A DNA stretch of 27,216 nucleotides from a virus (lineage: Duplodnaviria > Caudoviricetes). The stretch is from positions 1 through 27,216 of IMG/VR virus record IMGVR_UViG_3300022752_000320; one strand, 5' to 3'. Under the pieces are notes generated by a model that was not told the origin of the DNA, did not search any database, and saw only the letters and a program-made list of their open reading frames with translations. Position 1 is the stretch's first letter. Each line of letters begins with the position of its first letter. Positions 1-27,216 of the stretch are shown piece by piece. The position numbers were made by a program, and so were the translations under genes.

Positions 1-2
1 GT

Positions 3-3000
3 AACTTTGAAAAGCGCGGCGAACAAGGTGCTGCGATTGCAAAGGGCTTGCGCGATGCGATGGCATCGAACGAGTTTGATCACAGCCAGCTCTATCACGC
101 CTTTAATATGGCTGACATTTCTGCAAACCTTCTTGGTGACACAAAGGGTGTTCACGATCTGAAGTTTGTTACGAATCTTGCTGGTGCAGTAGGCTCAAGA
201 ACCAAGCCACGTGAAAACATGAACGGCTTGATCCAGCTCACACTGGACCCTAAGAACCTTATTCTTGGACGTTCGACCTCGGCCCACGAGGCTTTCCACG
301 TATTGCAGGATTTGTTTGCTGACAGCGATAAGCAGGCAGCATCTGTTATCGGTAACGCCTTCAAGGGCGCTCAGACATTTGATGACATCGATCCAAATCT
401 ACTTCGCACATTGAAGCGGATGAAGGACCCTGACTCAAACAGAAGTGTCTATGACACGCTCAAGAGACAGATACCGCAGGACGTATTGGACAGCTATAGC
501 CAGCCTACTCGTGAACGCGAGATGCAGGCTTATGTGTTTGGTCATCTTGATGACGCAATTCGTCGTGGTCGCCAGCAACCCGCTGGTCTTGGATCGTCGT
601 TCGTTCGCTTCTTGAACTACTTCCGCAACTTCATTGCACGTGCAGGCAACTATCTGCGTGGTCAGGGCTTCCAGACCGCAGAAGATGTCATGCGTCAGAC
701 AACAGCGGGAACACGTCAAGCCGGTAAGGAACAGGTCGGCGCTCGTGTCACGGCTGCTGAAGAAGCTCCTGAGCAGGAATACTCTTCTGCACGTCTTCGC
801 CGTGGAACAGAAACCCTTAAGAAATACGGCATTCAGCGCGGAGAAACAGGCGTCAAAACTCGTCGTTTGGCAGAGGCTCTTGAGGCTCGTCAGCGCGAAA
901 AGTATGGCACGATTGAACGGAACGACTACTCGGAAGAAGCATCCAAAAAGATTGCAAATTGGATGGCTGAAGAAGTTGGTTTTGCGACCGAACAACAGGC
1001 CGCCGGTAATGATTCTGGTGTTGGTTGGTACAGTGAAAAGTACCAAAGGGCACTTGATGCGTTCTCTGTTATCTTCCCGGAACTTAGAACGGATAAGACA
1101 AAGCGTGACATCTTCACAGCGACAGTAGCTTTGATGTCTGATGGACAAAAGGTTTACAATAACTTTAGTCTCGCAGGACGTGCATATTCGGAATACCGCA
1201 GAACAGGAAGGTTCCCAGAAACATTCCCGTTTGGCGGCGAACGCACTGCTTCGATGGAAGTAAACCTTAAGAACATGAACGATCTCATCCAGATGTTTGG
1301 TGAGCGCGGTGCAATAGACTATCTTATGGAAGAAAGAACTGTTGGTGACTTGTCACGTGTTGCAAGACAAGACGGCATCAACTTCTCAACGGCCTATAAG
1401 GCTGACACAAAACTTCCTATGGCAGCACTTGTCTTCGGACCTAAGCTGGGTGCCTTCTTCTCTAATCTCATGGGAAGTCATGGATACCTTACAATGGATC
1501 GCTGGTGGTCGCGGACGTTCAATCGTTATCGCGGTCAGCTTGTGACACGTGTCATAGGAACCTCTGACAAGCCATTTAACTCAAAGGGTGAGCCTATTGG
1601 TCTTGCCCGTTTCAAGGTCCTTCTTGCTGCTTATGACCGCAGGAACTCTCCTTGGGACACAATTTCTGACGAAGAGGCCATCACTCGTCTTCGTGACTTC
1701 CGTGATTCTTATGAGGCTAAAAACTTCAAGAACGGGACAGAGATTGAAAAGGCTGCAAATACGTTATACAAAGCCGCATTCGAGGGTACAGAAGATCAGC
1801 CCTTTAATGCGAGCGACCGCTCGTTTATGATTGCTACAGCAAACCGCGCAAAAGAATTGTTGAAGCGTCGCGGTATCAATTTGTCTCTCGCAGATATCCA
1901 AGCCGTGCTTTGGTACTATGAGAAGCGTTTGTATGGAGAGTTAGGTGCAAGACAAACAGCAGACATCAGCTATGAAGAGGCCGCAAACAGGGTCATCAGA
2001 GACCACCGTGATAATCCCGGACGATGGGATACACACGATGCTCCAGAAGCTACCATCATCGGACCGGATGGCTCTCTTATTGAAGTTGGGGACGAAGGTG
2101 CCGCGCCAGAAGAAGGCTTAGGGGAAGAAGAGTTCTCCCGTGCTGCCGCTCAAACTGGTGACAACGTCGAAGAGTTTAAGAAGTGGTGGGGTGACAGTAA
2201 GGTTGTAAAACCTGACGGCCAGCCTATGCCTTATTATCACGGCACATTCAGGGCCTTCAAAAAGTTTGCAAAGGCAAAGTCTGCTTCTGTTTACAGAGAC
2301 TACTCCCGTAAAACAGGACCGTTTTTCTTCAGCCCAAAGCCTGAGTTTGCATCAGACTTTGCTATGACAGATATGACCAAAGGCGGCTCTGGAAAGACGG
2401 TTAAGAAGGGTCGTGTTATTCCTGTTTTCCTTAGTGTGCAGAAGCCCTTTGACTTTGCAGACGAAAGTCACATCCAAGAGTTGATGGGTGATCCTGTGTT
2501 CATGGATAACTTGAAACAAATGTCCCGCTCTTCCTCTATTAAAGCAGAACTCGATTCTATTAGGGACGGTCATTGGAATGCGATAGAACAGAGGTTTGTT
2601 CAGGAAGCCATTCGCCGTAATGGGTTCGATGGTTTTTATGTCGTGGAAGGCGGCAACAAAAACCTTGCTGTCTATGATCCCAAGCAGATCAAGGGTGTAT
2701 TCAACGAGTTCAAGCCGGGAACGGCTGTCTCGGAAGAGTTCTCTCGCGCAATTTCTGAAACAGGTCAGGAAGAAGAAGCACGTGTAAACTCGCAGCGTTT
2801 CGGCGGTCTGTGGGACGGCATTCGTGAGTTCTTCAAGCCGTTTGCTCTTGTCAGCAACGTCGAAGACTTGTTCATGCTCAGAAACATATCAATGGGTTCG
2901 ATCACGAAGTCTGAACGCTTTGCACGTCAGATGTCCAAGATCATAGGTGGTGCGTCACAGGCTGATCGTGACGCTGTCTATAAGTTCATGACAACGCGCA

Positions 3001-5195
3001 ATGCTGATGCAAGCATGATTGAGAATGACAAAGTTCGCAATGCAGCTATGCAGTCGAAGAAGGAAATCAACCTCCTTGCTCAAAAGATGATTGAGCAAGG
3101 CCAGTTGACCCAAGAGAGCTTTGATAAATATTACGATCAGTATCTCCCACGTCTCTATCTCTATTACGAACTCACCGGTCGCGGCATGAAGACGCCGATG
3201 GGTGGTAAGAGTATGCAGGAGTATCTGAAGACACGTAATGATCAGTTGTCTGAAGAAGATCGCGCAATCCTTGGCGAAATCAAGGACCCGGCCTTCTTGG
3301 TTTATGTTGCTCTGTCACGACCAGCTCGTGACTTGGCAATGATCAAATACCTCAACGGCATCTATTCTGTTGGTGAAGAAAGCGGATGGATTGCACCTCA
3401 AACTGTTGTCGATTGGCGCGGCAATACAATGACTCCTTATGACCTTTTCCATCGTTCGGAAGAGATGCGTAAGTATGTTCTGCCTACCTTGAAGGAACAG
3501 GACCCAGAACAGGCTGAGGTAATGGAAAAAGAAATCGGCAAAATGAAGGAAATTGCCGATGCCGGTATCAAGAGCATCCAGTCAAATATCAAGACATATG
3601 AGCTTGATGGCTTCAAACAGATGCCAGACCATCCTCGCTACGGTCCTCTGGCTGGCGCTGTTGTTAAGAAGGCAATCTACAACGATCTCGTCGGCACGTT
3701 CATCCCTCTTGGACGTGAGAATATGTCTGCTGCAGAACGTCTTCTTGGCGATGAAAATTCCGGCCTCGTTAAGATGACTCAGCTATGGAAGCTGGGTAAG
3801 ACCACGCTCAACCCACCGACACAGGTAACCAACGCCATATCCAACGCGATTGCGTTAAACATCTTTGGTGGCGTTCCACTTCGTCAGTTCCCACGGCTTT
3901 TCCGTGAAGCATTGAACGGAATGTTAAAGAACAACGAACAGTGGAACGATGCTCAGGACTTCGGTTTGCAGGGCGGCACAATGTCAGCAGCCGAACTCCG
4001 GGCAGCCCTGATACGCCTCAAAGCATACCAGTTCAAGTCTGGTCAGGACACGTCGTTGATTGGGATGTTTGCATCCGTTCGTTCGATCATGAGTGCTTTG
4101 GCAGAGGGTGCCACTGACGCATACCAGTTCTCTGAAACACTGTTTAAGTTCATGAAATATATTCATGAAGTTGAGCAGGCTGGTCCAAATCCAACCAACC
4201 GTCAAAAGTCAAACGCTGTTAACGCGGCGCAAGAAACATTGTTTGACTACAGCCTTGTGAACCCGAACATCCGTTATATCCGTAATGCCCCTATCGGCAT
4301 TCCGTTTATCACCTACTACTACAAGGCATTGCCGAAGCTGGTTGAGACAATGGTTAAGACGCCTTGGCGTTTTATCCCTTATATTGCAATGGCTTACGCC
4401 TTGCCGATGGCTACAATGGCGGCGTTCGATATCGACGAAGACGAAGTTGAAAAGCTCCGCAAGTCGATGGCTGATTACATCCGTGACAATGGATCGCTCT
4501 ATATCCTCCCAATGCGTGACAGTAAGGGGAACATAGAGTTCATTGACGTGGGTCGATTCTTCCCATTCTCGTCATTTATTGACCCCTTTATTACGGCATT
4601 TAGATATGGTGAGTACGGCAAGGGTGCAAAGGAACTTGCTCAACCATTCCTGCCAAGCGGCCCTCTTGTCACAGCAATCACGGCTTTGAATGCCGGGGTT
4701 GATCCATTTACGAAGAAAAAGATTTATGATGAGCGTGACACGCCAAAGGCACAGGCTCTGTCTATGCTGTCATACGTCTGGAACCAAGCCATGCCACCGG
4801 CAATCAATGTTGATCTAAACAACATGGATCACAGTGGCGGAGCGTTGCCTCGCATCTACAACTCCCTGTTTGTAGATGGAACGGGTGTTGATAAGCGAGG
4901 CCTTCCAAAACCTGAAGTAATGGAGTCTATGTTGCGCCTCTTGGGTGCTAACGTCACACCTCTTGATCCGGTCAAGCAAGCGGCATCAAACATGCTTTAT
5001 ATGCAGAACCAGATCGTCAAGACAAAGGCTCTTCAGACACAGGTGTCGCGTGACCAAAGCATGACTGCCGAGGCTCGCAAGCAAAAGATTAAGGAACTCG
5101 CTGAGAAGATCAAAGAGGACTCTTTGAAACTTGAGGAATACGCACAGAGTGTATCTGGCGTTGGTAATATCGCTAAGAAGATTAGGAACACATAA
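3..5195 (+). CDS. Giant phage polyvalent protein, probably virion-associated or injected (5'-truncated, at least 1730 aa): zincin metallopeptidase, HhH-GPD-like domain, ART-PolyVal-like domain and LPD-type helical C-terminus
   Basis: The frame is open from position 3 (NFEKRGEQG...), so the true start lies outside the window. HEAFH is at 285-299 with a downstream EREMQAY. GWY...MSDGQ...GPKLGAFFSNLMG...LTMDRW...QAVLW marks module 2. FKKWWGDSKVV..DGQP..YHGT...VIPVFL...GFDG...AVYDPKQIK marks the ART-PolyVal-like module. The C-terminus has KTTLNP..QVTN / LFDYS / PFITY motifs typical of large polyvalent phage proteins. Confidence 0.85.
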   Translation, partial: NFEKRGEQGAAIAKGLRDAMASNEFDHSQLYHAFNMADISANLLGDTKGVHDLKFVTNLAGAVGSRTKPRENMNGLIQLTLDPKNLILGRSTSAHEAFHVLQDLFADSDKQAASVIGNAFKGAQTFDDIDPNLLRTLKRMKDPDSNRSVYDTLKRQIPQDVLDSYSQPTREREMQAYVFGHLDDAIRRGRQQPAGLGSSFVRFLNYFRNFIARAGNYLRGQGFQTAEDVMRQTTAGTRQAGKEQVGARVTAAEEAPEQEYSSARLRRGTETLKKYGIQRGETGVKTRRLAEALEARQREKYGTIERNDYSEEASKKIANWMAEEVGFATEQQAAGNDSGVGWYSEKYQRALDAFSVIFPELRTDKTKRDIFTATVALMSDGQKVYNNFSLAGRAYSEYRRTGRFPETFPFGGERTASMEVNLKNMNDLIQMFGERGAIDYLMEERTVGDLSRVARQDGINFSTAYKADTKLPMAALVFGPKLGAFFSNLMGSHGYLTMDRWWSRTFNRYRGQLVTRVIGTSDKPFNSKGEPIGLARFKVLLAAYDRRNSPWDTISDEEAITRLRDFRDSYEAKNFKNGTEIEKAANTLYKAAFEGTEDQPFNASDRSFMIATANRAKELLKRRGINLSLADIQAVLWYYEKRLYGELGARQTADISYEEAANRVIRDHRDNPGRWDTHDAPEATIIGPDGSLIEVGDEGAAPEEGLGEEEFSRAAAQTGDNVEEFKKWWGDSKVVKPDGQPMPYYHGTFRAFKKFAKAKSASVYRDYSRKTGPFFFSPKPEFASDFAMTDMTKGGSGKTVKKGRVIPVFLSVQKPFDFADESHIQELMGDPVFMDNLKQMSRSSSIKAELDSIRDGHWNAIEQRFVQEAIRRNGFDGFYVVEGGNKNLAVYDPKQIKGVFNEFKPGTAVSEEFSRAISETGQEEEARVNSQRFGGLWDGIREFFKPFALVSNVEDLFMLRNISMGSITKSERFARQMSKIIGGASQADRDAVYKFMTTRNADASMIENDKVRNAAMQSKKEINLLAQKMIEQGQLTQESFDKYYDQYLPRLYLYYELTGRGMKTPMGGKSMQEYLKTRNDQLSEEDRAILGEIKDPAFLVYVALSRPARDLAMIKYLNGIYSVGEESGWIAPQTVVDWRGNTMTPYDLFHRSEEMRKYVLPTLKEQDPEQAEVMEKEIGKMKEIADAGIKSIQSNIKTYELDGFKQMPDHPRYGPLAGAVVKKAIYNDLVGTFIPLGRENMSAAERLLGDENSGLVKMTQLWKLGKTTLNPPTQVTNAISNAIALNIFGGVPLRQFPRLFREALNGMLKNNEQWNDAQDFGLQGGTMSAAELRAALIRLKAYQFKSGQDTSLIGMFASVRSIMSALAEGATDAYQFSETLFKFMKYIHEVEQAGPNPTNRQKSNAVNAAQETLFDYSLVNPNIRYIRNAPIGIPFITYYYKALPKLVETMVKTPWRFIPYIAMAYALPMATMAAFDIDEDEVEKLRKSMADYIRDNGSLYILPMRDSKGNIEFIDVGRFFPFSSFIDPFITAFRYGEYGKGAKELAQPFLPSGPLVTAITALNAGVDPFTKKKIYDERDTPKAQALSMLSYVWNQAMPPAINVDLNNMDHSGGALPRIYNSLFVDGTGVDKRGLPKPEVMESMLRLLGANVTPLDPVKQAASNMLYMQNQIVKTKALQTQVSRDQSMTAEARKQKIKELAEKIKEDSLKLEEYAQSVSGVGNIAKKIRNT

Positions 5196-5710
5196 TGAAG
5201 AGTAACTATGAGACATGTATCGCCCTCGTTCTCAAGCACGAAGGTGGATACGTTAATAACCCAAAAGACCCGGGCGGTGCCACGAATCTTGGCGTGACAA
5301 AGAAAGTCTGGGAGGAATGGGTTGGTAAGCCTGTGTCACTAGATGAAATGAAGGCGTTGACGGTAAAAGATGTCACCCCGCTCTACAAAGCGCAGTACTG
5401 GGACCGTGTCCGTGGAGATGATCTACCGGCAGGTGTTGACTATGCTGTTATGGATGTTGCTGTTAATAGCGGTGTTGTTCGCGCCGCCAAGTTTCTTCAG
5501 GCTGCTCTTGGACTTACTGCGGATGGCATTATCGGACCAGCGACACTAGCTGCTGCGGAGGCTGCCAACCCCCGTCAGCTTGTCACAGAAATCTGTGACA
5601 AGCGGCTGGCGTTTATGCAAGCTCTCCCGATCTGGAGTACTTTCGGAAAAGGATGGCAGCGTCGGGTGGGGGAAGTTGAGAAGAAGGCGTTCGAGATGGC
5701 ATCGGTGTGA
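5195..5710 (+). CDS. Endolysin, glycoside hydrolase family 108, with C-terminal peptidoglycan-binding domain
   Basis: LKHEGGYVNNPKDPGGATNLGVT (EGGY signature), D..VNSG...A.K.LQ..LG...DGIIGP.T, FGKGW..RV; TAATG overlap with the upstream gene. Confidence 0.92.
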   Translation: MKSNYETCIALVLKHEGGYVNNPKDPGGATNLGVTKKVWEEWVGKPVSLDEMKALTVKDVTPLYKAQYWDRVRGDDLPAGVDYAVMDVAVNSGVVRAAKFLQAALGLTADGIIGPATLAAAEAANPRQLVTEICDKRLAFMQALPIWSTFGKGWQRRVGEVEKKAFEMASV

Positions 5711-5721
5711 TGACAATGTCA

Positions 5722-7194
5722 TCACATGAGCCATTCTTTGTATTCCTCTCTCATGACAAGCGTCGCTATGTCGATCTTCTCACGAAGGGCCTTGAGAATC
5801 TTCTCCTCAACCGTGTTCTCCGTAACAAGGTCAATGTAGGTAACGGAGTTCTTCTGGCCGATACGATGCGCTCTGTCCTCAGACTGAAGCCGAACCTCTA
5901 AGTCATAAACATTGTTGTAGTAGATAACAGTCTTGGCTTCCGTCAGGGTTAGACCGTAACCGCCCGTGCGTGGTTGGCCCACGAAGAACCTGAGCTTGGA
6001 ACTCGGATCTTGGAACTTCTCAACGATGTCTTGACGTTCATCGGCATCGGTATCGCCGTAATACATGGCGGCTGACCCTTCACCATATTCCTCGTTCAGA
6101 GCGGCGGCGATACGTTTGATGTCTTCTGTAAAGACAGCCCAGATGATGACCTTGCCGTCCACCTCATCAATGGTTGCCGACAACTCAGCCAACTTGTTGT
6201 TGGGAAGGGTTGTCATCTTGCCCTCGTCATCGTTCACGTGACCGGAGCAAATCTGTTGCAGGCGGAGAATCTGTGTCAGGACGTTCGTCGCTGTCACGGT
6301 CGTCATGTCACCTTCTTCGTTCATCAGCTTAGCCAGTGCCAGCTTCTTCATGTAACCGTAAGCGACGGCCTGTTCGTCGGTCATCTCGACAACGCGCTTG
6401 ATGTAAATCTTCTCCGGAAGGTCAAGGCAATCCTTCTTCAAGACGCGGTAGCTGAACTCTTCCAGCTTGTCGGATAACTCATCAAGATTCTGGTAGCCCA
6501 CAACCTGATTGAAGCTGTGGCTCCCAACGCTTCTCCTGACAGTCTTCGCAAACCGACCTTGGAAGGCATAATAAGAAGTGTAGCCTATGAGTTTCGGGTC
6601 AAGGAAAGCGCATTGGCTGAATAGGTCCATCGGTGACTTGGTTATGGGGGAACCCGTCATGATTCTGCGGAACAATGACTTTTCCCCAACTTTTGTGATG
6701 TTCTTTGTCCGCTGAGCAGATTTATTTTTAATGGTGGTGCTTTCGTCAACCGCCATAAGTGTCTCATGTGTTTGACAAAATTTCATTGCGAAGGCTGTTC
6801 CACGGGCTGTGGAAAACGCTTCGACGTTCATGACGAGGATTTTGAAGCGGTCATCCTTCTTCAACGCCAAGTCTAATTTCTTTTTCTGTTCAATGGTTTG
6901 CTTGGGGTCCCATGCAATGACGTCGCAGTTTTCTAGGATGCGATCAGGCATGTGGCGGGGAATCTCGGACCTCTGCCAATTCTTATACACACCCTTCGGT
7001 GCGACAATTAGAGCGGCCTGAATTTCGTTGCGCTCAAACAGGATACCAATGTTGTCTATGAGCATCTTGGACTTGCCCGTTCCCATCTCACAGAACAAGG
7101 CAAAAACCTCTTTATTCCAAGACATTTGCAGCCCTTTTTTCTGATGCTCGTAGGGCGGCATTTTGAACTCATACTTCGTAACGAATGCGCTCAT
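5722..7194 (-). CDS. SNF2-family (SF2) helicase/ATPase
   Basis: PYEHQ, EMGTGKS (Walker A), VDES (Walker B), MTGSP, TGGYGLTLT, QSEDRAHRIGQ. Start moved to the ATG at 7194 (MSAFV), which has an AGAAAGAAG leader. Confidence 0.92.
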   Translation of the reverse strand: MSAFVTKYEFKMPPYEHQKKGLQMSWNKEVFALFCEMGTGKSKMLIDNIGILFERNEIQAALIVAPKGVYKNWQRSEIPRHMPDRILENCDVIAWDPKQTIEQKKKLDLALKKDDRFKILVMNVEAFSTARGTAFAMKFCQTHETLMAVDESTTIKNKSAQRTKNITKVGEKSLFRRIMTGSPITKSPMDLFSQCAFLDPKLIGYTSYYAFQGRFAKTVRRSVGSHSFNQVVGYQNLDELSDKLEEFSYRVLKKDCLDLPEKIYIKRVVEMTDEQAVAYGYMKKLALAKLMNEEGDMTTVTATNVLTQILRLQQICSGHVNDDEGKMTTLPNNKLAELSATIDEVDGKVIIWAVFTEDIKRIAAALNEEYGEGSAAMYYGDTDADERQDIVEKFQDPSSKLRFFVGQPRTGGYGLTLTEAKTVIYYNNVYDLEVRLQSEDRAHRIGQKNSVTYIDLVTENTVEEKILKALREKIDIATLVMREEYKEWLM

Positions 7195-7226
7195 GGTAAT
7201 TTCTTCTTTCTCAAAAGTGGAACCGG

Positions 7227-7256
7227 ATAATAAACGACAGCGGCTGGAATTTTCAA
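7227..7256 (-). promoter_or_regulatory. Putative sigma70 promoter for the SNF2 helicase
   Basis: TTGAAA-N18-TATTAT on the minus strand, 33 nt upstream of the ATG. Confidence 0.5.
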
Positions 7257-7263
7257 GTCCCCC

Positions 7264-7291
7264 TTGACAGCGTCCCGCGAGACTATATGTT
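7264..7291 (+). promoter_or_regulatory. Putative sigma70 promoter for the replication operon, back-to-back with the helicase promoter
   Basis: cTTGACA-N16-TATGTT followed by a purine-rich leader and the ATG at 7318. Confidence 0.55.
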
Positions 7292-7317
7292 GGGGATCGG
7301 AAAGGAAGAAAGCAAGA

Positions 7318-7656
7318 ATGACAGTTTATATCACTCATGAAATGCGAGGCCGTGATATTTCCAACGCTTTAGAGTATGGGCCGTTGAAAGTAGTTCTCCC
7401 CGCAGAAATACAAGTCATTGATAATCCTATACAAAAGAAGATGGTCATCGATATGATCGAGGACACTCTTAAGGATTTTAATGATGACGATTACTTACTT
7501 CTTTCCGGAGACCCCGCTTGCATCGGTATTTGCGTAGGGGTTGCGGCTTTGAATAATAATGGTCGCATCAAAATGCTAAAGTGGGATAGACATGAAGAAA
7601 GATATCTCAGTTTAGATGTCACGATAGAAATAGGAGCAGAAAGCGATGAGTATTGA
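7318..7656 (+). CDS. Conserved phage hypothetical protein, small alpha/beta fold (112 aa)
   Basis: ATG at 7318 after GAAAGGAAGAAAG. The DYLLLSGDP...LKWDR...Y motif is one I recognise from similar phage replication modules. Confidence 0.8.
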   Translation: MTVYITHEMRGRDISNALEYGPLKVVLPAEIQVIDNPIQKKMVIDMIEDTLKDFNDDDYLLLSGDPACIGICVGVAALNNNGRIKMLKWDRHEERYLSLDVTIEIGAESDEY

Positions 7657-8197: not shown

Positions 8198-8200
8198 CAT

Positions 8201-9040: not shown

Positions 9041-9054
9041 CAACTTAATCCTAT

Positions 9055-9089
9055 GGCAGACCCTGTAACAGGGGTCTGCCGTTTCTGTT
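9055..9089 (+). terminator. Stem-loop after the SSB gene, a possible weak intrinsic terminator or attenuator
   Basis: GGCAGACCC-N8-GGGTCTGCC (9-bp stem) followed by GTTTCTGTT. Confidence 0.55.
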
Positions 9090-17954: not shown

Positions 17955-18275
17955 TCAAGATGCTTTTTCTATCGGAGCCATCGCCTTCCGAAGATCAAAA
18001 GCCACGTTGACAGGGCTTGACCCATATCTCGATCCAAGGGTGGCATACCCACATAGGTCATCCCAGTGATCCCTGACACCGCTGTCACCTGACAGGATTC
18101 GCGCCAGCTTGGATGCAATCATCTCGAACGACTCTTTCTGCGAGTCGGGTATCTTCTCCCAGTTAGGTCCTGACCTGAATACTTCTTTCAAGGACTGAGA
18201 AATCCGTGACACGTCTTTGTAGTCTCCGTGTTGCTTCTCGCGCTCTGTCAGTAACTTCTCAATATCAGCCATCAT
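17955..18275 (-). CDS. DUF6378-like protein
   Basis: ER...HGDY...K.ARI..GD....DHW.D..GYA.L; AAGGAG RBS. Confidence 0.8.
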   Translation of the reverse strand: MMADIEKLLTEREKQHGDYKDVSRISQSLKEVFRSGPNWEKIPDSQKESFEMIASKLARILSGDSGVRDHWDDLCGYATLGSRYGSSPVNVAFDLRKAMAPIEKAS

Positions 18276-19243: not shown

Positions 19244-19244
19244 G

Positions 19245-19547
19245 TCACTTCTCGTCCTTCTTCTCTAACTCGTAATAGTCTTTGTAGATTGCCATCATGA
19301 CATCGCCCATCGCCTTCAAGGCACTCGTCGGATCAGTTCCAGAGATGGCGTATAGCTTCGCCAACTGCATCGACATAACCGCTGACACAACAGTGAAAGC
19401 CGTTGACATGTCACCCTTGTTCTCGTCAAAGACCTCGGTGACCATCGCCTTTAGCTTCTTGTCAAACTTGTCACCCATCTCATACTGCTTGGGAAACATA
19501 GCCTTCGCCGTCTCACGTGACAGCTTGATCGCGTTGAGTTCAAGCAT
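19245..19547 (-). CDS. Hypothetical all-helical protein
   Basis: GAGGAAG RBS; tight packing. Confidence 0.7.
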   Translation of the reverse strand: MLELNAIKLSRETAKAMFPKQYEMGDKFDKKLKAMVTEVFDENKGDMSTAFTVVSAVMSMQLAKLYAISGTDPTSALKAMGDVMMAIYKDYYELEKKDEK

Positions 19548-19851
19548 CGTCTTCTTCCTCTGCTTCTTTCACACGCTCGACAATGTGATCAACCAACTGT
19601 GCCAAAAGATTATCGACAGCTTTCCTCTGACCATTGCACATAAGCAGAAGACCTGTGACACCCGCTTCAATGGCAGATGACGCGGCATAGACCATCGCCT
19701 CTGTTGTCACCTTGCGCGTGTCCTTCTGGTATTGATCCAAGATATCAAACATAGCCTTCTTGGTTGGACCGTGAACACTCCTCGTGATCTTTTCGATCTC
19801 TTCCTGTGTCAGCTTGTTCTCAAGTTCTTTAATGTCTTCACCCGTAATCAT
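19540..19851 (-). CDS. Hypothetical all-helical protein
   Basis: ATGA coupling; AAGGAAG RBS. Confidence 0.7.
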   Translation of the reverse strand: MITGEDIKELENKLTQEEIEKITRSVHGPTKKAMFDILDQYQKDTRKVTTEAMVYAASSAIEAGVTGLLLMCNGQRKAVDNLLAQLVDHIVERVKEAEEEDDA

Positions 19852-20042
19852 TTCACTTCTTCCTTCTGGTTAAATGCTAATTTATATCCATCGTATTCTT
19901 CTACGTAAACGTCACCATCTACAGCATCGTCCCAATCGCTTGGCTCTGATCCACCAAAGGCAATGTCACGCGCTTGGTCTTCGTTGTCAGCTTCGACAAC
20001 AATGTCTTGATATGTCAGCAGTGTCACAAGATACTTAGGCAT
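19848..20042 (-). CDS. Small acidic protein (V.VEA.NE.QA...A motif, DpnD/PcfM-like)
   Basis: GAGGAGAAAGG RBS before the ATG at 20042. Confidence 0.7.
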   Translation of the reverse strand: MPKYLVTLLTYQDIVVEADNEDQARDIAFGGSEPSDWDDAVDGDVYVEEYDGYKLAFNQKEEVK

Positions 20043-20055
20043 TTCCTTTCTCCTC

Positions 20056-20475
20056 TCACCACGATGAATGATATTCAAAGTCCCAATTGTCTGGGAATTT
20101 TTCCAAGGCATTTTCAATCATCTCAACAGTGCCGTTGAGATAATCAAAGTAATACTCGCCAAACTCTGTGCCACCAAAGAAGAACCCGTCTGCTGTTGGT
20201 AACAGTTCAGGAGCCTTTTCAGGTTCCGCGATGACACGTTTACAGATGTCAACAAGGGCTTTGAGTTTGTCACGTGTTACGGGGTATGAATCGCAATCAT
20301 CATCGCCGTTCTGAACATTGTTAACAAACCAATCATGAATGGCGTTGGCCTTCCGCCAATAGGCGGCTTCGACTTCAATCCGTCTTACGTGATACCCTTT
20401 TGGTATCTCGTCAATCTTAGGCTCCTCATTGGGCCAATAGAAACGCCTAGCGTTTAGATACATATCAAGTCCCAT
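20056..20475 (-). CDS. Conserved phage protein (MGLDMYL...YWRKANAIH.WF...GFFFG...Y.SSW family)
   Basis: Recognisable motif set; AAGGAG RBS. Confidence 0.85.
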   Translation of the reverse strand: MGLDMYLNARRFYWPNEEPKIDEIPKGYHVRRIEVEAAYWRKANAIHDWFVNNVQNGDDDCDSYPVTRDKLKALVDICKRVIAEPEKAPELLPTADGFFFGGTEFGEYYFDYLNGTVEMIENALEKFPDNWDFEYHSSW

Positions 20476-20486
20476 AATCTTTCTCC

Positions 20487-20795
20487 TTATGCGCGACGCA
20501 AACCAACACCGAAACCGCCACCGATGCGGAGACTGCGGTCGCTGTCATCATCGTCTTCGTCGTTGTCTATTTGTTTCGTAAAGTGACTGAAGTTCTCAAA
20601 CTCGCCTAGAACGTATCTAAAATACTTAGACTCTGACACGGTCAGACTGACCTGCGATGTCTTGCCGTTCTGGCTCTGCGTGACCCGCACGACAGACGGC
20701 ATACCTTGGATGTATTCCACAGTCGTATCGACGCTCTCGCCTCGGTCATCGGACCTTTGCAGGGTGACAGATGATTTTAATTTCGTTGTCATCAC
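20487..20795 (-). CDS. Hypothetical protein
   Basis: GTGA overlap; GAGAGG RBS. Confidence 0.65.
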   Translation of the reverse strand: MMTTKLKSSVTLQRSDDRGESVDTTVEYIQGMPSVVRVTQSQNGKTSQVSLTVSESKYFRYVLGEFENFSHFTKQIDNDEDDDDSDRSLRIGGGFGVGLRRA

Positions 20796-21001
20796 GCGGC
20801 CCTCTCTGTTTCGATGATCCGGATGTCACCCTCTACGCCGATAGAGTATTCGGCAGGGTTGGGGGCATACATGGAACGCATTTTTTGATTGATCTGGTCA
20901 ACACGCGCTTGTGCCTTGGCGTAGGTGTCATACTCCTCGACCCACGTGTCAGCAGATGATGGTGTCCGTTGCCAAAGGTTAATAAGGTATGTTTTCTTCA
21001 T
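20792..21001 (-). CDS. Hypothetical protein (69 aa)
   Basis: AGGAGAAAG RBS before the ATG at 21001. Confidence 0.7.
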   Translation of the reverse strand: MKKTYLINLWQRTPSSADTWVEEYDTYAKAQARVDQINQKMRSMYAPNPAEYSIGVEGDIRIIETERAA

Positions 21002-21055
21002 GGTCTTTCTCCTAATTCTAAAAGGGATGATGGTGACGGCTTGCAAAGTTTAACA

Positions 21056-21190
21056 GGGAAATGTCAGTCGCCTACCTGATGGCCCCGAACAATGCCTTTT
21101 CTCGACTATCCAGTGACGGGGAAAAACAAGACAAAACCCGTCACTGGCTTACGTTCACCCGTTGCCGTCGCGGCTGTGGACGAACTTCCC
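21056..21190 (-). ncRNA. Candidate structured intergenic RNA (closing stem plus three hairpins)
   Basis: GGGAA/UUCCC closing stem; GUUCGUCC/GGGUGAAC; perfect 11-bp CCAGUGACGGG/CCCGUCACUGG; AGUCG/CGACU. No known family recognised. Confidence 0.4.
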
Positions 21191-21191
21191 A

Positions 21192-21455
21192 TCAGGCGGC
21201 AACTGTGTTGGCGGCGTCAATGCTACGCAAAGAGCGGTTCTGCTCAATGATATCAAAACGCTCGCCCAATTTATCCTTGAAGTCTAAGAAGGTCATAGGC
21301 TCAACTTCGAAGTGTTCCATCCTCATCAGGCCTTCGACCTTCATCAAAAACTCTTTAGCCTTCTCAGCCTCTTCGCCGTTCGTGAAGATAACCTCAATGT
21401 CTGCGAGAGTGTCTGCCACTTCTACAAGGGCTTGGATTTTATGAACGGTGGTCAT
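21192..21455 (-). CDS. Hypothetical protein (87 aa)
   Basis: AGAAAGG RBS before the ATG at 21455; first gene after the promoter. Confidence 0.7.
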   Translation of the reverse strand: MTTVHKIQALVEVADTLADIEVIFTNGEEAEKAKEFLMKVEGLMRMEHFEVEPMTFLDFKDKLGERFDIIEQNRSLRSIDAANTVAA

Positions 21456-21516
21456 TGGTAAACCTTTCTTGGTTCTCGGTTCTCGGTCATCGGTTCTTTC
21501 TTCTACCGATGCACAC

Positions 21517-21544
21517 ACCCTATCATCTTTCCACAGGCTGTCAA
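21517..21544 (-). promoter_or_regulatory. Putative sigma70 promoter for the long minus-strand operon
   Basis: TTGACA-N16-TAGGGT with an extended TGn. Confidence 0.55.
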
Positions 21545-21558
21545 ATAAAATTGTCGAC

Positions 21559-21567
21559 TGTGGATAA
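21559..21567 (-). promoter_or_regulatory. Perfect DnaA box (TTATCCACA)
   Basis: TGTGGATAA on the plus strand; a degenerate inverted copy CTTTCCACA lies at 21527-21535. Confidence 0.55.
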
Positions 21568-21738
21568 CTTTTTTATAATCTAATGATTTCAAGGGGTTAG
21601 TTGGGTGACGTAGTTGTTGCGCTGACCACGCCACCCAAAAACGATTCGATCAGATCAGAGGTCCGATGTCAACAGGGCAAACAAATCTGATCACATTGGT
21701 AGAATAAATTGACACCGTTGTTGCTCAAGTGAGCGACG

Positions 21739-22029
21739 TCATTCAGCCTTGGGTCGTTCCAAAAAGAAGACGCGATATCGGACCTTCTTTGTCTCGCCGT
21801 CAATCTCGGGGATGCTTCGCAACATCAGGTGTCCGTAGATATCAGGATAACGTTTCTGGTAGTAGTTGAGTGATGATGTGATCAGGGAACGCTCCGCTCG
21901 GCTTTGGGCAAGAATACTTACCCCCACTTTAATTTGTTCAATGTCAAAGGTCCGCTTCTGTGTCGCCTTGCGATACTTCTTCGGCTCGTAGGGGATGCCT
22001 TCTTCAACTTGAAATCTAAACTCGGTCAT
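21739..22029 (-). CDS. Small basic phage protein, possibly DNA-binding
   Basis: AAGGAG RBS; VEEGIP.P...F....VG.S...RVF pattern. Confidence 0.75.
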   Translation of the reverse strand: MTEFRFQVEEGIPYEPKKYRKATQKRTFDIEQIKVGVSILAQSRAERSLITSSLNYYQKRYPDIYGHLMLRSIPEIDGETKKVRYRVFFLERPKAE

Positions 22030-22079
22030 GGATAGTGTCTCCTTGTGTCATGGATAGAGTAAGATAGATAACGGCGTGA

Positions 22080-22109
22080 CAGATAGAGTGACAGGTAGGG
22101 GATGTCAAG
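22080..22109 (-). promoter_or_regulatory. Putative promoter (CTTGAC-N17-CTATCT)
   Basis: One mismatch to the rhizobial sigma70 consensus CTTGAC-N17-CTATAT; overlapped by two CTGTCAC sites. Confidence 0.55.
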
Positions 22110-22146
22110 AAGGGCTGTGGGTAGCGGTCCTCGGACCTTGGAACTT

Positions 22147-22507
22147 GGCAAGACTCTTTTTGCTATAAGAGGGAGGGGAGGACGAAGTGTTGCTGATGTC
22201 TTTACAAGTAACATAAGTTATTGAAAACAAAGTATAAAGAGAGAGTCTACCCAAACTATATCACACAGAGTCTTTCCAAAGCCTTTCCTAAAATTATGAT
22301 GATAAATCAAAGTGTTATGGTATGAGGCCAAACCGTAAAGGGCTTTTTTTACCTTTTAGAGAAATTTTTTTTTGCTCAAGATTTCTTCAAAAGAGTCTTT
22401 CCGGTTTGGCTGGATCGGTTAAGGTATTGAACAATAAGGAGTATTTTAGGCAAGACATCGGACAGACATCGGACAGGGGGTGTCACATTATAAGGCAGAG
22501 TCTTTCC
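22147..22507. repeat. Dispersed 11-bp repeats AGAGTCTTTCC
   Basis: Exact at 22267, 22392 and 22497; inverted 10/11 at 22147; 9/11 at 22242. Confidence 0.75.
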
Positions 22508-22619
22508 CTTTTTATTCTCTATACAGTTTATTTCTGTGTTGACGTGCGCGAGGATTACCAAGTGTTGATCGATGATCAAATGGTAAGAAAGCCTTTTATG
22601 TAATAATATCAAATACTTA
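22214..22619. promoter_or_regulatory. Cluster of IHF-consensus sites (WATCAANNNNTTR)
   Basis: Exact at 22305-22317 and 22607-22619; near matches on the minus strand at 22214-22226 and 22420-22432. Confidence 0.6.
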
Positions 22620-22700
22620 GCTTGTTTCCCCAGTTCCTTATAGCAAAACCTTGAGGTGACAACGGAAACTGTCTATAACCTTGGTGACAGGAGGCATGAC

Positions 22701-23360
22701 ATGGGACGCTTCATTCGTCGGAGGGTGAAGGACATCCGAACGATACCGCCAGACCTTCCTGCTTTCAGGGCAGTCGGCAACCCGCGCAGAGAGTTGGGCA
22801 TCACTGAAAAGCAGGAGCGTTTTGCTCGGTATGTGGCGGGTGGTAGTATGACATACACCGAAGCGGCGGCTAAGGCGGGGTTCACTAAGAAGTGGTCCCA
22901 CATCTATGGCCCCAAGTTAATGAATCCGAGATACTTCCCCAAGGTTGTCGAGAGGGTGAGGCAGATGAAAGAACAGTTAGCGATCCGGACAGACCTGACC
23001 TTTGATGGTCACGTGACAAAGATGGCAGAGATCAGAGACGCAGCAATGGAGAAAGGAAACTTCACTGCTGCTGTCGCTGCCGAGAAGTCACGGGGTCAGG
23101 CAGCAGGCTTCTACGTGTCACGGTCTGAGATTATGGTCGGCAAGATAGACCAGATGTCACGCGAGGAGGTGCTGGCAGAGATTCGCAGGCTTCAGTCTGA
23201 GTTCCCCACCCTTGCAAGTATGCCAGCAGGCCCCGTCATAGATGTCATCCCAAACAATGAGGTCATAGATGTCGAGATCGATACCCCTGACAACCGAAGT
23301 GAAAATGTGGCGGTCTTTGCGGGGGAAGATCAAGACGGGGGTTCAATGGACGAGGCTTGA
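22701..23360 (+). CDS. terS: Terminase small subunit
   Basis: ITEKQERFA...TEAAAKAGF (N-terminal HTH), IRDAAMEKGNFTAAVAAE..RG.AAG.YV; AGGAGG RBS 6 nt before the ATG at 22701. Confidence 0.75.
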   Translation: MGRFIRRRVKDIRTIPPDLPAFRAVGNPRRELGITEKQERFARYVAGGSMTYTEAAAKAGFTKKWSHIYGPKLMNPRYFPKVVERVRQMKEQLAIRTDLTFDGHVTKMAEIRDAAMEKGNFTAAVAAEKSRGQAAGFYVSRSEIMVGKIDQMSREEVLAEIRRLQSEFPTLASMPAGPVIDVIPNNEVIDVEIDTPDNRSENVAVFAGEDQDGGSMDEA

Positions 23361-23724
23361 GGCGCGAGTCGGAGCTGGGATGCCTGACATAAACGGTGCT
23401 GTCACCGAAGGCGAGTTCTGGCTGGAGCTGAAGGTCTGCAAGACAAAGCGATTCAAGACGGCTGGCCTTTGGCGACCTCATCAGGTGTCATGGCAGTTCA
23501 GTAGGTCAAAGGTGTTTCACAACGTCTGGAATGTTGTGAGCCACCCAGAGGATAATAAAGTTTATGTTTTTGGTTGCGACAAGATTTTGAAACTCAACGA
23601 ACCGGATATCAGTGTGACACCTGACTTTGTTATGGAAGGCCCCTTCGATTGGGGATTGATGTTGGATTTTATCAAGGCGCAACTTAAAAAATGCGCCGCT
23701 ATGGATGAGTGCGCGGATGCCTAA
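23269..23724 (+). CDS. PD-(D/E)xK nuclease, VRR-NUC or Holliday-junction-resolvase-like
   Basis: E..MW...RLE....GMPD...WLELK...RPHQ..W. Confidence 0.8.
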   Translation: MSRSIPLTTEVKMWRSLRGKIKTGVQWTRLEARVGAGMPDINGAVTEGEFWLELKVCKTKRFKTAGLWRPHQVSWQFSRSKVFHNVWNVVSHPEDNKVYVFGCDKILKLNEPDISVTPDFVMEGPFDWGLMLDFIKAQLKKCAAMDECADA

Positions 23725-24022
23725 GATTATACCCTTGAAAACCACGGCCCAGTTCTCTCGTTGGGCGGTCGAGAATCGTGACAAGCACAAGATCAGTCAG
23801 CGTAAATTGTTGCGGCTTGCCAGCCTGTCACATGCCACGCTGACAAAGGTTGGTGAGAATACTGACATGCGCTTATCCACTGCCGCGCAGATAGCGCGGG
23901 TGTTCGGATATCAGCTTGCGCTTGTCGAGATTCCGATTCCTGACACGCAACAAAAAGCCCCCGCCACGGATGGCGAGGGCGATGGTGTCACGGCTGACAC
24001 GGTGTCACCTTCGGGGGTGTAG
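23705..24022 (+). CDS. XRE/Cro-like HTH protein
   Basis: R....ISQRKL...ASLSHATL.......MRLST...IA..FG; the start may be 23717. Confidence 0.65.
   Translation: MSARMPKIIPLKTTAQFSRWAVENRDKHKISQRKLLRLASLSHATLTKVGENTDMRLSTAAQIARVFGYQLALVEIPIPDTQQKAPATDGEGDGVTADTVSPSGV
23952..23980 (-). terminator. Intrinsic terminator of the AAA/vWA operon, embedded antisense in the HTH gene tail
   Basis: Minus strand GCCCTCGCCA-TCCG-TGGCGGGGGC-TTTTT. Confidence 0.75.
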
Positions 24023-24226
24023 GTTGTCGGCTATCATGTCGAGAATGCGTGACCCTGAATGCGCTTCGAATAGTTGGCCCCGCACGTTGAGGGCCTTCCA
24101 TCGCGTCCGGTCTTTCGGCATCCGTTCTATCCAAGCCTCCACTGCACCGCCCCGCAGGACGATGAGCGCATCGCGCCCATCCCCCCGCACTTCAAGCCCC
24201 AAGGCTTCCAAGACATCAAGCCTCAT
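24005..24226 (-). CDS. Hypothetical protein (73 aa)
   Basis: ATG at 24226 overlaps the upstream gene end; followed by the terminator. Confidence 0.55.
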   Translation of the reverse strand: MRLDVLEALGLEVRGDGRDALIVLRGGAVEAWIERMPKDRTRWKALNVRGQLFEAHSGSRILDMIADNLHPRR

Positions 24227-25088
24227 GATCGATGCCGCCGTATTGTTTGAGCATCGCGTCGAACCACTCTTCGGGCTTGTTGACCAGATCGTCTTCCATG
24301 TGAGGCGCGGCGATGCAGAGCATGTCGTCGGAGCCAATGACACGGGACAGAACGGGCCGCATGTTTGCGCGTGACCACGTGTGATCGTTATAGGGCCACC
24401 TAAGCCACCCGCTATCGCCCACCTCATTACTGACAACCGCATAGACCATGCCACGTGAGACGGCTGTCGATGTCATGACATGCGCGGCACGAGCAAGGTC
24501 GAGCGGTGCGGTGTCCATCCGCCACCAAGCGTGGACGGTATTATTCTGACCCTCAGGAAGGGATGACCCGCCGCACCATAACTCCACTGGGCGGATGGCT
24601 GACAGGGCGCGGACTAGTGCGAGGATGAGCGCACCCCGTTTCTGCAACGTCGAGGATTTAATTCCCGCCGAAGATACCAGATCAACACACACCGCGAGCG
24701 GTGCGGTTTCCGTTGCAACACGTGTTCGGCGTCTCATGTTGAGGGGATGGCCTGATAGGAATGCGGGAACATTCGTTGACCCACCTATAACATCACGCAC
24801 CGACTCAAAAGCACCGCGCACAGGGGCAAGGTTTTCAAACTTAGTTAGCCAAGCGTCACTGGCGGCCACACCTGATATGTCACCATCGCGGGTAAAGCGC
24901 ACCGCATCGTCGTATGACATGCCGCCTGTCCAGTCGTTGCCCTTTTTGCATTCCTTGCGATTGTGATTTTCGGTCGGGACGGTTAAGGCCTTGTCGGCAA
25001 AGCCCGACAGGGTGTCGCTGATAAGGAATACGTCCTTTCCATCTTTTTTGGGGCAGGTGTCGATAACGTTGAAGATGATCTTACGCAT
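24216..25088 (-). CDS. vWA-like (DUF7192-like) partner of the AAA+ ATPase
   Basis: GG..NVPAFLSGHP.NM, then beta-strand VCVDLVSSAG and helix RGALILALV..L...PVELW; adjacent to a MoxR-like ATPase. Confidence 0.65.
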   Translation of the reverse strand: MRKIIFNVIDTCPKKDGKDVFLISDTLSGFADKALTVPTENHNRKECKKGNDWTGGMSYDDAVRFTRDGDISGVAASDAWLTKFENLAPVRGAFESVRDVIGGSTNVPAFLSGHPLNMRRRTRVATETAPLAVCVDLVSSAGIKSSTLQKRGALILALVRALSAIRPVELWCGGSSLPEGQNNTVHAWWRMDTAPLDLARAAHVMTSTAVSRGMVYAVVSNEVGDSGWLRWPYNDHTWSRANMRPVLSRVIGSDDMLCIAAPHMEDDLVNKPEEWFDAMLKQYGGIDHEA

Positions 25089-25117
25089 GGTGTTGGTGTC
25101 CTTTCTCTTTCGGTTGA

Positions 25118-26473
25118 TCAGGCGCGGCCTTCAACGATCTTTCGTTGATCGTCGGTCAGGTTTGCAAGGTAGGTGAGGTTTGCCGCTTCCTCGTGTGTGA
25201 AGCCCCCCGCAATAAGCGCGGCACCTGCGACAGAAGCGCGGGGCGTGATCAACACCTTAAGACCCGCCGCAGAGGCGCGGACACGTGAGGCCTGAACCCG
25301 TTTTGCGAATTCGGCGTTTCCGCAGATAGCCTGTTCCAATGCTACATCGTAGCCCCACGACAGGCGGACGCCGAAGCGGTCGAGGAAAGCGGCATCGATT
25401 TTTGTGCGACCCACGTAATCGCTTGTAGCACCGAGGCCCCACGTGTTGCCTGTGCTTACAATACGGCAATCAGGGTGCCGCTTGATCAAGCGATCAGGGA
25501 AAGCGGCTATTCCGTTGGACAACGCACCGTTAAGCGCAAGCACCGCCGCATTATCTGAGCCATCGACTTCGTCGAAAAGGTAAACGCCGCCGTGTTCGAA
25601 CGCATCGCGAAAGGGTGTTCTGCGATATACCCCGTTCGCGTCTTCGTAGCCAAGCAACTGGAACGCATCACGCAAAGCGCCGTTGTAGTAGAACGGTTGA
25701 CCCGCCGCATCGGCAAATGCCTTTACGGAATGCGTTTTGCCAGAGCCTGCGGGGCCTGCAATCCAAACGTTGGGCGTGAACCCGTCAGCGGCGCGGCATG
25801 ACAGGGCGCGGCATAGCGTGATATACATAGGGTGATGATGGCCTGACGTTTCCCCGACTACAACACCGTTTGATGTTAGCTCGATTTTTGTGGCCGACAT
25901 GTTAGCCAGTGCTTCTTCGACTTTCGGTGCGACCGAACCCCACACCTCTTCAAGTGCGTGTCCTTTAATAATGTCCCAGAGCGGTTTTCCTGCATCGTTT
26001 TTGTCAAACGAGGGGCGCGACACCGTGACAGGCGCGGCCTTCGTTTTGGTTTCCGCCGCCGCTGTTGTCTCCGCCGCCGCTGTCGATCCGTATTTCTCGG
26101 CACGGGCGACGATGTTGGAGATGGTGGTGAATTGACGGTCCGTTGCGGCCCCGTCCTGTTTTGTTTTTATGGTGTTGAATATGTCGCGGCAAAGCATCGC
26201 CTCTTTGATTGTGAGGTGATTGTCGATCAGGTTAAAACGGGCTTCGAGGGCGGCGACAGTATCGGCGGAGCGGGTGCGTTCTTTCATAGTGTCTGTGCTT
26301 TCTGTTGATGTCAGGGTTTTCACATCGATATCCAAGGCCTTCGCGGCGGCAAGCAGATCATCTTTTCCCATCGTTGCGATGCCCTGACCCGTTGCCTTTT
26401 TATAATCCTCCCAACGGGGGCTAGATGTGATTGCCTTGCGGAGAAGGGCGCGATGTTGAGCTGAAAGGTCCAT
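25118..26473 (-). CDS. MoxR/CbbQ/CobS-like AAA+ ATPase with long N-terminal extension
   Basis: Walker A GPAGSGKT, Walker B YLFDEVD, HPDC...TGNT.G.G, DAAFLDRF (Arg finger). Confidence 0.9.
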   Translation of the reverse strand: MDLSAQHRALLRKAITSSPRWEDYKKATGQGIATMGKDDLLAAAKALDIDVKTLTSTESTDTMKERTRSADTVAALEARFNLIDNHLTIKEAMLCRDIFNTIKTKQDGAATDRQFTTISNIVARAEKYGSTAAAETTAAAETKTKAAPVTVSRPSFDKNDAGKPLWDIIKGHALEEVWGSVAPKVEEALANMSATKIELTSNGVVVGETSGHHHPMYITLCRALSCRAADGFTPNVWIAGPAGSGKTHSVKAFADAAGQPFYYNGALRDAFQLLGYEDANGVYRRTPFRDAFEHGGVYLFDEVDGSDNAAVLALNGALSNGIAAFPDRLIKRHPDCRIVSTGNTWGLGATSDYVGRTKIDAAFLDRFGVRLSWGYDVALEQAICGNAEFAKRVQASRVRASAAGLKVLITPRASVAGAALIAGGFTHEEAANLTYLANLTDDQRKIVEGRA

Positions 26474-26854
26474 TTTGTTCTCTCTTTCTATCTTTCTAAG
26501 TAGGTATCAACTTGATGCCGTTTAGATCAGATTCGGTGTCACGTGTCAAGCGCATCTGGCATCTTTTTTGTGATATTATAAAGTATGCGAAAGCGGCCTT
26601 CTAAGGTTTTGAAATATAAAGGAAATAAGGCCAAGGCCCCACGGCCTCTATCCTTGCATTTTTGCAAAGGGGTTTTTGTCAGCTTGCACAGGCGCAAGAA
26701 GCCCGTCAGCGGCTTTTATCGTGACACCGTGGGTGATTCCCTTCCAACTGCCAACGGCGACTGGCGGCCTGTTTCTGTGCGTTTTAGAGGCATGACAAAT
26801 TTTGTCATGCCCTCTTGGTGTCAGGTCCAAGGTCCGTGTCACAATGTCGCACCC

Positions 26855-26903
26855 CATCGGTCCGGTGTCACGTGTCATCGGTCAGCGGTCCGGTGTCAGG
26901 GGT
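26855..26903. repeat. Degenerate heptamer tandem array (7 units)
   Basis: catcggt ccggtgt cacgtgt catcggt cagcggt ccggtgt caggggt. Confidence 0.65.
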
Positions 26904-26989
26904 TTACGTTCGGTAACGTAAACTATGACAGATCGTCCTGGCGCTTGCTTACGTTCGGTAACGTAAGGTGCTTACGTTGCGCAACGTAA
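26904..26989. repeat. Three operator-like palindromes TTACGTT-N4-AACGTAA
   Basis: Exact arms at 26904-26921, 26949-26966 and 26972-26989. Confidence 0.85.
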
Positions 26990-27083
26990 AGCGGCCATGT
27001 CATGACATGACACGGTGTCACAGACCATGACACGGTGACACGGGTCCCTTGGGCGCGGTGAGTGCGCGGCTGACAAATGTCAG

Positions 27084-27125
27084 CGGACCCCGGACCCCGG
27101 TATTTGGCCCTCGGACTTTGGAACT
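27084..27125. repeat. Degenerate heptamer array (YGG-initiated units)
   Basis: cggaccc cggaccc cggtatt tggccct cggactt tggaact; related to 22125-22152. Confidence 0.6.
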
Positions 27126-27216
27126 CTCCTATAATCCCAATTTTCTCTGGTATGTGAGCAACGCAAAAAAGTCGGCCAACCCCCTTTTCAACAGAACGCC
27201 TTTGGGTCCCCGGATG

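Follow-up and report, generated by a model that had tools for sequence, protein, structure and literature searches.

A short word iterated throughout a lake phage genome is associated with the N-terminal domain of a phage CobS-like AAA+ ATPase

The stretch of DNA analysed here (27,216 nucleotides, hereafter the window) is part of the genome of an HTVC023P-type lake phage. The sequencing run that covers it best is a lake-water metagenome and possibly its source. Its genes include those for PolA, an AEP primase, and UvrD and SNF2 helicases. A non-coding gap holding many copies of the word TGWCA (TGACA or TGTCA) is followed by the gene of a CobS/MoxR-like AAA+ ATPase and by that of its predicted partner (Table 1). 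One related contig extends beyond the window edge, and contigs from four sequencing runs gave no evidence of a physical end at that edge.

Table 1. Features of the window that bear on the iterated word and its putative reader.
Feature	Position	Strand	Remarks
Dispersed TGWCA	1..27216	both	214 sites, mean gap 127 bp
DUF7192 protein, predicted vWA/MIDAS-like partner of the ATPase	24216..25088	-	fold matches, degenerate MIDAS
CobS/MoxR-like AAA+ ATPase (AAA_5), 451 aa	25118..26473	-	first gene beyond the array
cobN, ~55-aa four-helix N-terminal domain of the ATPase	26288..26473	-	inferred DNA reader
Array of 20 TGWCA sites	26537..27082		non-coding gap upstream of the AAA+ gene
TTGACA -35-like box	26544..26549	-	predicted early promoter of the AAA+ gene; contains a motif site
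Conserved CAAGGGACCCG element	27041..27051	-	at or near the array start, HTVC023P-like clade

The ATPase was found to match phrog_249 (E 2e-48) and Pfam AAA_5 (E 7e-6, which is below the curated cut-off for AAA and above that for AAA_5), and its nearest solved structures were midasin (E 1e-14) and CobS (E 2e-6). We use the label cobN, coined in this analysis, for its first ~55 residues, for which Pfam gave no significant match. The fold predicted for cobN has four helices (pLDDT 82). Its top structural matches were XRE HTH domains, at a weak level (Z 4.4, rmsd 4.0, 62 aligned) that small helical domains reach by chance. A BFVD fold search with cobN returned nothing at E <= 0.001, and an Atlas search (best 0.81) was uninformative. 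In a 50% library cobN was present in 126 clusters, with a Walker A motif in 64 of the 66 matches of at least 350 aa, and it was not found in 401 genomes of the class of G016. For the neighbouring DUF7192 protein the top structural matches were all vWA folds of middling score, with Rea1-MIDAS at Z 7.1 (rmsd 7.1, 193 aligned; Foldseek E 6e-3) and NorD at Z 6.8 (rmsd 4.3, 155 aligned). Its MIDAS is degenerate, being DxxSS-like as compared to the canonical DxSxS.

An earlier note on this DNA had put the hexamers TGTCAC and GTGACA at about 84 copies against about 13 expected. The recount gave exactly these numbers (49 TGTCAC and 35 GTGACA on the + strand), with an expectation of 13 if composition is uniform and of 19 in an order-2 Markov model, and this was the top-ranked hexamer. 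The real unit was found to be the pentamer TGACA/TGTCA, with 117 and 97 sites, respectively, in comparison to 91 expected for both together (order-2 Markov). Its single-base neighbours were not raised (counts 28-83). At the base 3' of TGTCA, C or G was favoured and A avoided.

In the coding DNA of the window (24.7 kb) TGTCA was found 83 times and TGACA 94 times, as compared to 28-31 and 37-40 in synonymous-codon shuffles (z 10-12). The excess also persisted in shuffles aware of amino-acid pairs (48 TGTCA and 61 TGACA expected, z 7). Enrichment survives the dicodon-aware null under which, according to the note, it should vanish if the idea were wrong. The excess was seen in all usable codon phases, and the non-coding DNA holds 37 TGWCA sites in 2.8 kb. 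Coding and template strands were equally enriched (94/83 in the window, 190/169 in the Sinorhizobium phage phiM5); the word is therefore non-polar, unlike stoperator-type oriented sites. The note's sites on both strands, in varied codon phases and in non-coding DNA were confirmed in this way, with each class enriched.

Pair spacing showed codon periodicity only and no dominant distance. The inverted pairs with spacers of 0-5 nt that the note listed are present, with one position corrected from 18073 to 18074. The Pho box, bound by PhoB, consists of direct repeats at an 11-bp period, and matS, bound by MatP, is a 13-bp inverted GTGAC-RNY-GTCAC. When 16 sequences were pooled, the 12 same-orientation pairs at distance 11 were fewer than those at adjacent distances, giving no 11-bp Pho box period. 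TGACA followed by TGTCA at distance 6, as the matS-type spacing has it, was rare, with 2 cases in the window and 4 in the pooled set.

The note had described the iteration as window-wide. Sites are indeed dispersed throughout, but their density is not uniform, and the note overlooked the 20-site array in which it peaks. Overall, density was greatest in non-coding and fast-evolving DNA. Site spacings within the array are irregular. In four complete enriched genomes (G001-G004) the AAA+ gene, the first early gene, is likewise separated from terL by a gap with a dense TGWCA array, next to a conserved CAAGGGACCCG element. In these genomes the observed-to-expected ratio (O/E) of TGWCA declines from 2.1-3.5 near the array to 1.1-2.1 far from it. 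A pattern scan identified further loci with a TGWCA array beside the CAAGGGACCCG element, and a parS-type site lies close to the array in most HTVC023P-like loci. That the CAAGGGACCCG element is a terminus or packaging signal is a guess.

By polymerase, the nearest cultured relatives of the window phage are HTVC023P-type phages (52-55%). The polymerase led to 79 viral loci. The 21 with identities of >=69%, some of them near-duplicates, all had a TGWCA O/E of 1.54-2.31. Of the remaining 58 loci, 57 did not exceed 1.32 and a single 4-kb locus reached 1.64. In codon-aligned pairs of carriers the sites were lost at 0.40-0.63 of the expected rate, in comparison to 0.92 in outgroup pairs. In carriers site loss is roughly halved. 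The loss ratio for TGWCA was below that of all 60 control pentamers in deep pairs, and it was 0.54 in shallow pairs, inside the control range (mean 0.80, sd 0.21). Gains of TGWCA arise from all neighbouring words, with no single feeder. Halved losses together with gains from all neighbours fit weak selection on many sites and not one mutational route. Avoidance of GANTC, a feature tied to alphaproteobacteria via CcrM, was seen in the clade of the window and points to alphaproteobacterial hosts. A host search over genome contigs yielded 11 loci, all outside the enriched clade.

Several genes, among them those for a Cro/C1 HTH protein, a large ejection-type protein and the CobS-like ATPase, were present in all four enriched genomes and absent from five non-enriched relatives. 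Across the eight enriched genomes compared (window, G001-G004, G011, G012 and phiM5), the ATPase was the sole protein in common. G011 and G012 share no core gene with the window, and both have cobN; G012 is enriched (CTGTCA 39/6 and 35/3) and G011 more weakly so. G004 retains cobN on a divergent ATPase with a different partner and is enriched, and G013, whose ATPase and vWA genes come without cobN, shows no enrichment. In most ATPase-vWA pairs both cobN and a clear word are missing.

None of the readers proposed in the note can serve as the shared reader. The DnaA-IV gene is found in one of the four complete enriched relatives. The variable domains of the polyvalent protein are not common to carriers, and the protein is unmatched in G011, G012 and phiM5, as are the HTH protein and the product of the gene at 21739-22029. 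The note's idea of a selected single-site self-mark or docking site is itself supported, by the dicodon-aware nulls and the halved losses, and its likely reader is cobN, a domain that the note never named. Other candidates were also rejected. The clade-specific Cro/C1 HTH gene (23717..24022, + strand) lies outside the module, and in L191 its recognition helix differs while the word is unchanged. TerS and primase are about as similar in the non-enriched G005 and G006 (50-63%) as among carriers and are not shared with phiM5, G011 and G012. DUF3846 occurs in the non-enriched G010 and is missing in G012.

The core genes of the cultured phage phiM5 are unrelated to those of the window, and its cobN-ATPase and vWA genes are the first genes inward of the right terminal repeat. 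The ATPase is gp64, encoded at 41916-43121. Its coding DNA has 190 TGACA against 33 and 169 TGTCA against 34, with CTGWCAG as the top 7-mer. Six TGWCA sites were found in the 357-bp terminal repeat, and the gap equivalent to the array of the window includes this physical repeat. Over six bins along the genome the O/E was 4.7-6.2 with no gradient. The phage encodes an integrase. The TGWCA O/E was 5.42 in phiM5 as compared to 0.55 in S. meliloti pSymB (45 kb), and density differed 16-fold (9.6/kb vs 0.6/kb). The cobN-less rhizobial phages 16-3, PBC5, phiM9 and RHph_X2_24 (25-30 kb each) had O/E values of 0.86, 1.08, 1.28 and 1.12, respectively. In 18 bacterial stretches above 10 kb (of 19 fetched; class of G016) the O/E was 0.51-1.34. 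The over-representation in host DNA that is typical of Chi was thus seen neither in pSymB nor in these stretches. The note's suggestion of titration of a host regulator such as PhoB is disfavoured, as neither host DNA nor the other phages of that host show enrichment and the 11-bp period is missing. PMC10386132 places the early descent of phiM5 in SAR116 hosts, and the mark may therefore have evolved in a host other than S. meliloti.

Next, loci from four scans were scored against codon shuffles. After removal of the window's own contig and of loci that were below 5 kb or had little coding DNA, 249 remained, and dereplication at 80% ATPase identity gave 129 loci, 35 with cobN and 94 without. 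A TGWCA O/E of at least 1.5 was found in 25 of the 35 cobN-positive loci as compared to 5 of the 94 others. Seven of the cobN-positive exceptions iterate TGACT (O/E 2.3-3.7); they share one cobN subtype and have TGACT arrays upstream. Under a rule that accepts either word at an O/E of at least 1.75, which like the other thresholds was chosen post hoc after the data had been seen, 32/35 cobN-positive and 9/94 cobN-negative loci pass. The three below threshold are L213 (1.3), L356 (1.4) and L359 (0.7/1.1). An upstream word density of at least 5/kb was found in 32/35 and 4/88 loci, respectively, and the word type of the array was that of the coding DNA in all 35 cobN-positive loci. These loci fall into nine gene-sharing clusters, assigned from flanks only. 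Outside the cluster of the window 21 of 24 pass, and both word types occur inside one cluster (phiM5-like). An ATPase tree (FastTree, 112 rows) offered only 4 independent pairs on supported branches, so that the sign test was underpowered (median p 0.25-0.5). The finding is real and wider than the window.

In all seven TGACT loci, coding DNA, array and -35-like box alike carry the word that goes with the cobN subtype. In the 400 bases upstream, TTGACT was found in 7/7 of these loci and TTGACA in none, whereas TGWCA-type loci had TTGACA in 20/27 and TTGACT in one. In the background without cobN each of the two boxes was found in 14/89. As the word switches with the small domain of the ATPase, the ATPase likely reads it as a mark of "self". 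An Asn near the start of helix 1 was considered as a marker of the TGACT type and rejected, because L291 has the Asn and iterates TGWCA. Apparent words in L284 and L281 were lost under the codon null.

Based on these comparisons of sequences we tentatively favour, at slightly less than even chance, a reading in which TGWCA is a self-mark bound by cobN, and in which binding loads the ATPase and its predicted vWA partner to remodel host proteins. That cobN binds the word directly is highly probable. Given such binding, it may just as well be true as not that the job is remodelling of the MoxR-vWA type, by analogy with known pairs, directed at host silencers or defence proteins on the marked DNA. 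Expression would begin with the ATPase, from the promoter behind the end array, on which the protein would then nucleate via cobN. It would go on to cover the genome, with one site in every 100-260 bp, and by occupying the -35 box would damp its own promoter. Together with the vWA partner it would strip or evict host silencers or defence proteins from the phage DNA, and weak selection on each site would lead to the 2-5-fold excess of the word. Such an arrangement, with an AAA+ motor, a swappable reader domain, a genome rewritten at synonymous sites and eviction of host complexes, would make up an undescribed and widespread phage self-recognition system, a view for which we would put the chances a little under one half. 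Alternative N-terminal domains on the same ATPase may read AGACA, GTATAC and TTGCAA, which would amount to a domain-to-word code.

Two alternatives assume the same reader, cobN. The protein could be a genome-wide stoperator-like repressor that holds a carrier or lysogenic state and regulates itself at the -35 box. The motif inside that box, switching with type, the integrase of phiM5 and the parS-type site near the array in most HTVC023P-like loci are all in line with this. However, the sites are non-polar and lie within genes on both strands equally, whereas stoperators are long and polar, and a repressor has no obvious need for an AAA+ motor and a vWA partner. We therefore consider it unlikely, though it is the foremost of the alternatives. 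The ATPase could also act as a ratchet or tether that pulls in or positions the genome after the marked end has entered, as suggested by the array within the physical terminal repeat of phiM5, with the ATPase as first gene inward, and by the O/E gradient from the array in G001-G004. The lack of a gradient in phiM5 speaks against this, as does G006, a close relative with the same virion genes and without the module, and a membrane anchor was not identified; we find this reading rather improbable.

The 16-fold density contrast between phiM5 and pSymB would also be expected if the mark shielded phage DNA from a phage-encoded attack on unmarked DNA of the host or of competitors. This is very doubtful, as no nuclease is common to carriers and the partner is vWA-like and not McrC-like. 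Similarly low is the probability that a host protein (in Chi-like recombination, PhoB or a nucleoid protein) reads the word and cobN merely co-travels among phages of the same host. The alphaproteobacterial hosts suggested by GANTC avoidance, the small number of independent contrasts and the precedent of Chi, a host-read word over-represented in phages according to PMC3784561, agree with a host reader. However, no enrichment is seen in the host replicon or in three further phages of the S. meliloti type, none of the 18 bacterial stretches exceeds 1.34, and the word switches with the cobN subtype inside one phage group. It is hardly conceivable that TerS, primase or the Cro/C1 HTH protein reads the word as a packaging or priming signal. 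The array does adjoin terL and a likely genome end, and the HTH gene is clade-specific, but gene content largely refutes the idea, with none of the three in common with phiM5, G011 and G012. Equally remote is a mutational or repair bias (methylation-directed, HIP1/VSP-like) that makes the word without selection. The density peaks in non-coding, fast-evolving DNA agree with it; the lack of a single feeder of gains and the halved losses do not. In addition, CGWCG and the one-step intermediates were at an O/E of about 1, and a regex search found no methyltransferase motif in the four complete enriched genomes.

The ATPase and its partner resemble the MoxR/CobS-vWA pairs (CobST, NorQD, CbbQO, RavA-ViaA, midasin and the viral ATV p618/p892), in which an AAA_5 ATPase lies beside a vWA/MIDAS-like gene. 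PMC7911831 describes AAA-vWA pairs as adaptor and remodelling chaperone and their viral role as unclear, and in PMC2147016 a phage MoxR pair is merely noted. In comparison to these pairs, the N-terminal domain here co-varies with a genome-wide word and an upstream array. Mycobacteriophage stoperators are ~13 bp long and polar, number a few dozen per genome and are bound by a plain repressor. They are alike in that a phage-encoded protein has many dispersed sites on its own genome, some at promoters, whereas the word here is 5-7 bp and non-polar, occurs 200-420 times in a genome and goes with an AAA+/vWA pair. McrB, a GTPase of the host, recognises foreign DNA that is modified and works with the nuclease McrC. 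It likewise has an exchangeable N-terminal DNA-recognition domain on an AAA_5-type motor; here, by contrast, the partner resembles vWA proteins and it is self DNA that is rich in the word. Iterated words of bacterial chromosomes, such as HIP1 and DNA uptake sequences, have methyltransferase- or pilin-linked readers. They resemble TGWCA in being non-polar and spread genome-wide over synonymous sites by weak selection or drive, but here there is an end array and, by regex in G001-G004, no methyltransferase motif. Chi, which is read by the host, is described in PMC3784561 as over-represented in lambdoid phages. Like TGWCA it is short and in strong excess in phage DNA, and it has a role in self/non-self discrimination; however, Chi is a host word read by RecBCD, and here the host is unenriched, the likely reader is phage-encoded and specificity switches.

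In the open-access literature we found no description of a link between motif and module. If the proposed reading is true, a mark in coding sequence that is written and read by the phage would be a new form of self/non-self discrimination without chemical modification. Some of the common phage "cobS/porphyrin biosynthesis" genes, which have long been puzzling, would then also gain a function. The change from TGACA to TGACT would represent a natural specificity switch in a 55-residue domain, and host prediction based on k-mers could be skewed by a phage's own protein. As phiM5 is cultured and has the strongest signal, the idea is directly testable in a phage-host pair.

Phages are known to lose short words and so escape restriction, or to take over words of the host, of which Chi is one. 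CCWGG was found to be avoided in the genome of the window (1 vs 34), as were many 6-bp palindromes. Since carriers still purge these words, the module is apparently no shield against ordinary restriction enzymes. In the close non-carrier G005, thymidine-modification genes were found in place of the module, which hints at a defence-related role for the latter.

Among the carriers, that is the phages with an ATPase bearing the cobN domain, the iterated word TGWCA was found to vary. TGCCA/TGGCA is additionally iterated in some of them (the complete relative G001 and the viral loci L235-L239 and L327), the middle base being relaxed there, and the preferred flank of TGWCA differs between subclades, with C in the window and G001 and G in G002-G004.

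Words other than TGWCA are iterated on both strands in further loci of the same ATPase family (L276/L277/L279, L278, L267, L359 and L282/L283), in which the N-terminal domains of the ATPase are other or divergent. The words in this set are AGACA (z 5-6), GTATAC (28/4), TTGCAA (25/6) and CTAGA, and L282/L283 have an AGCCCT tandem array upstream. Possibly these loci represent the same system with different readers.

Most HTVC023P-like carriers have a palindrome of parS type near the terL start and beside the array, which may recruit host ParB. Repeats resembling the second repeat of the window were present in L136, L142 and L148. G006, a close relative that is not enriched for TGWCA, lacks the ATPase module and has its own tandem array.

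Features at the array locus and elsewhere in the compared phages
Feature	Position	Strand	Remarks
parS-type palindrome	G001:18903, G002:19610, G003:48618; also L142, L148, L165, L185, L190		perfect palindrome
Second repeat, TTACG-type	window 26895-26990		~19-bp, near-palindromic, three copies; inside array
Different tandem array	G006:12450-12800		about 26-bp unit; position equivalent to carriers' array
Base-hypermodification cluster	L093:7294-13400 (G005)		non-carrier relatives
Polyvalent-protein region, adjoining ART-PolyVal	window 750-2100	+	inside ORF 3-5195

The cluster in G005 comprises genes for a thymidylate-synthase-like protein, a 5-hmdU DNA kinase helical domain, an HD nucleotidase and a glycosyltransferase, and a cluster of this type is not present in the enriched clade. 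The polyvalent-protein region, missing from G001-G004, has an HhH-GPD-like appearance as judged by eye and a weak match to DUF7178 (E 0.035).

CCWGG, GTAC and many 6-bp palindromes are strongly avoided across the window (1-27216). GANTC is scarce in its clade, which hints at an alphaproteobacterial host.
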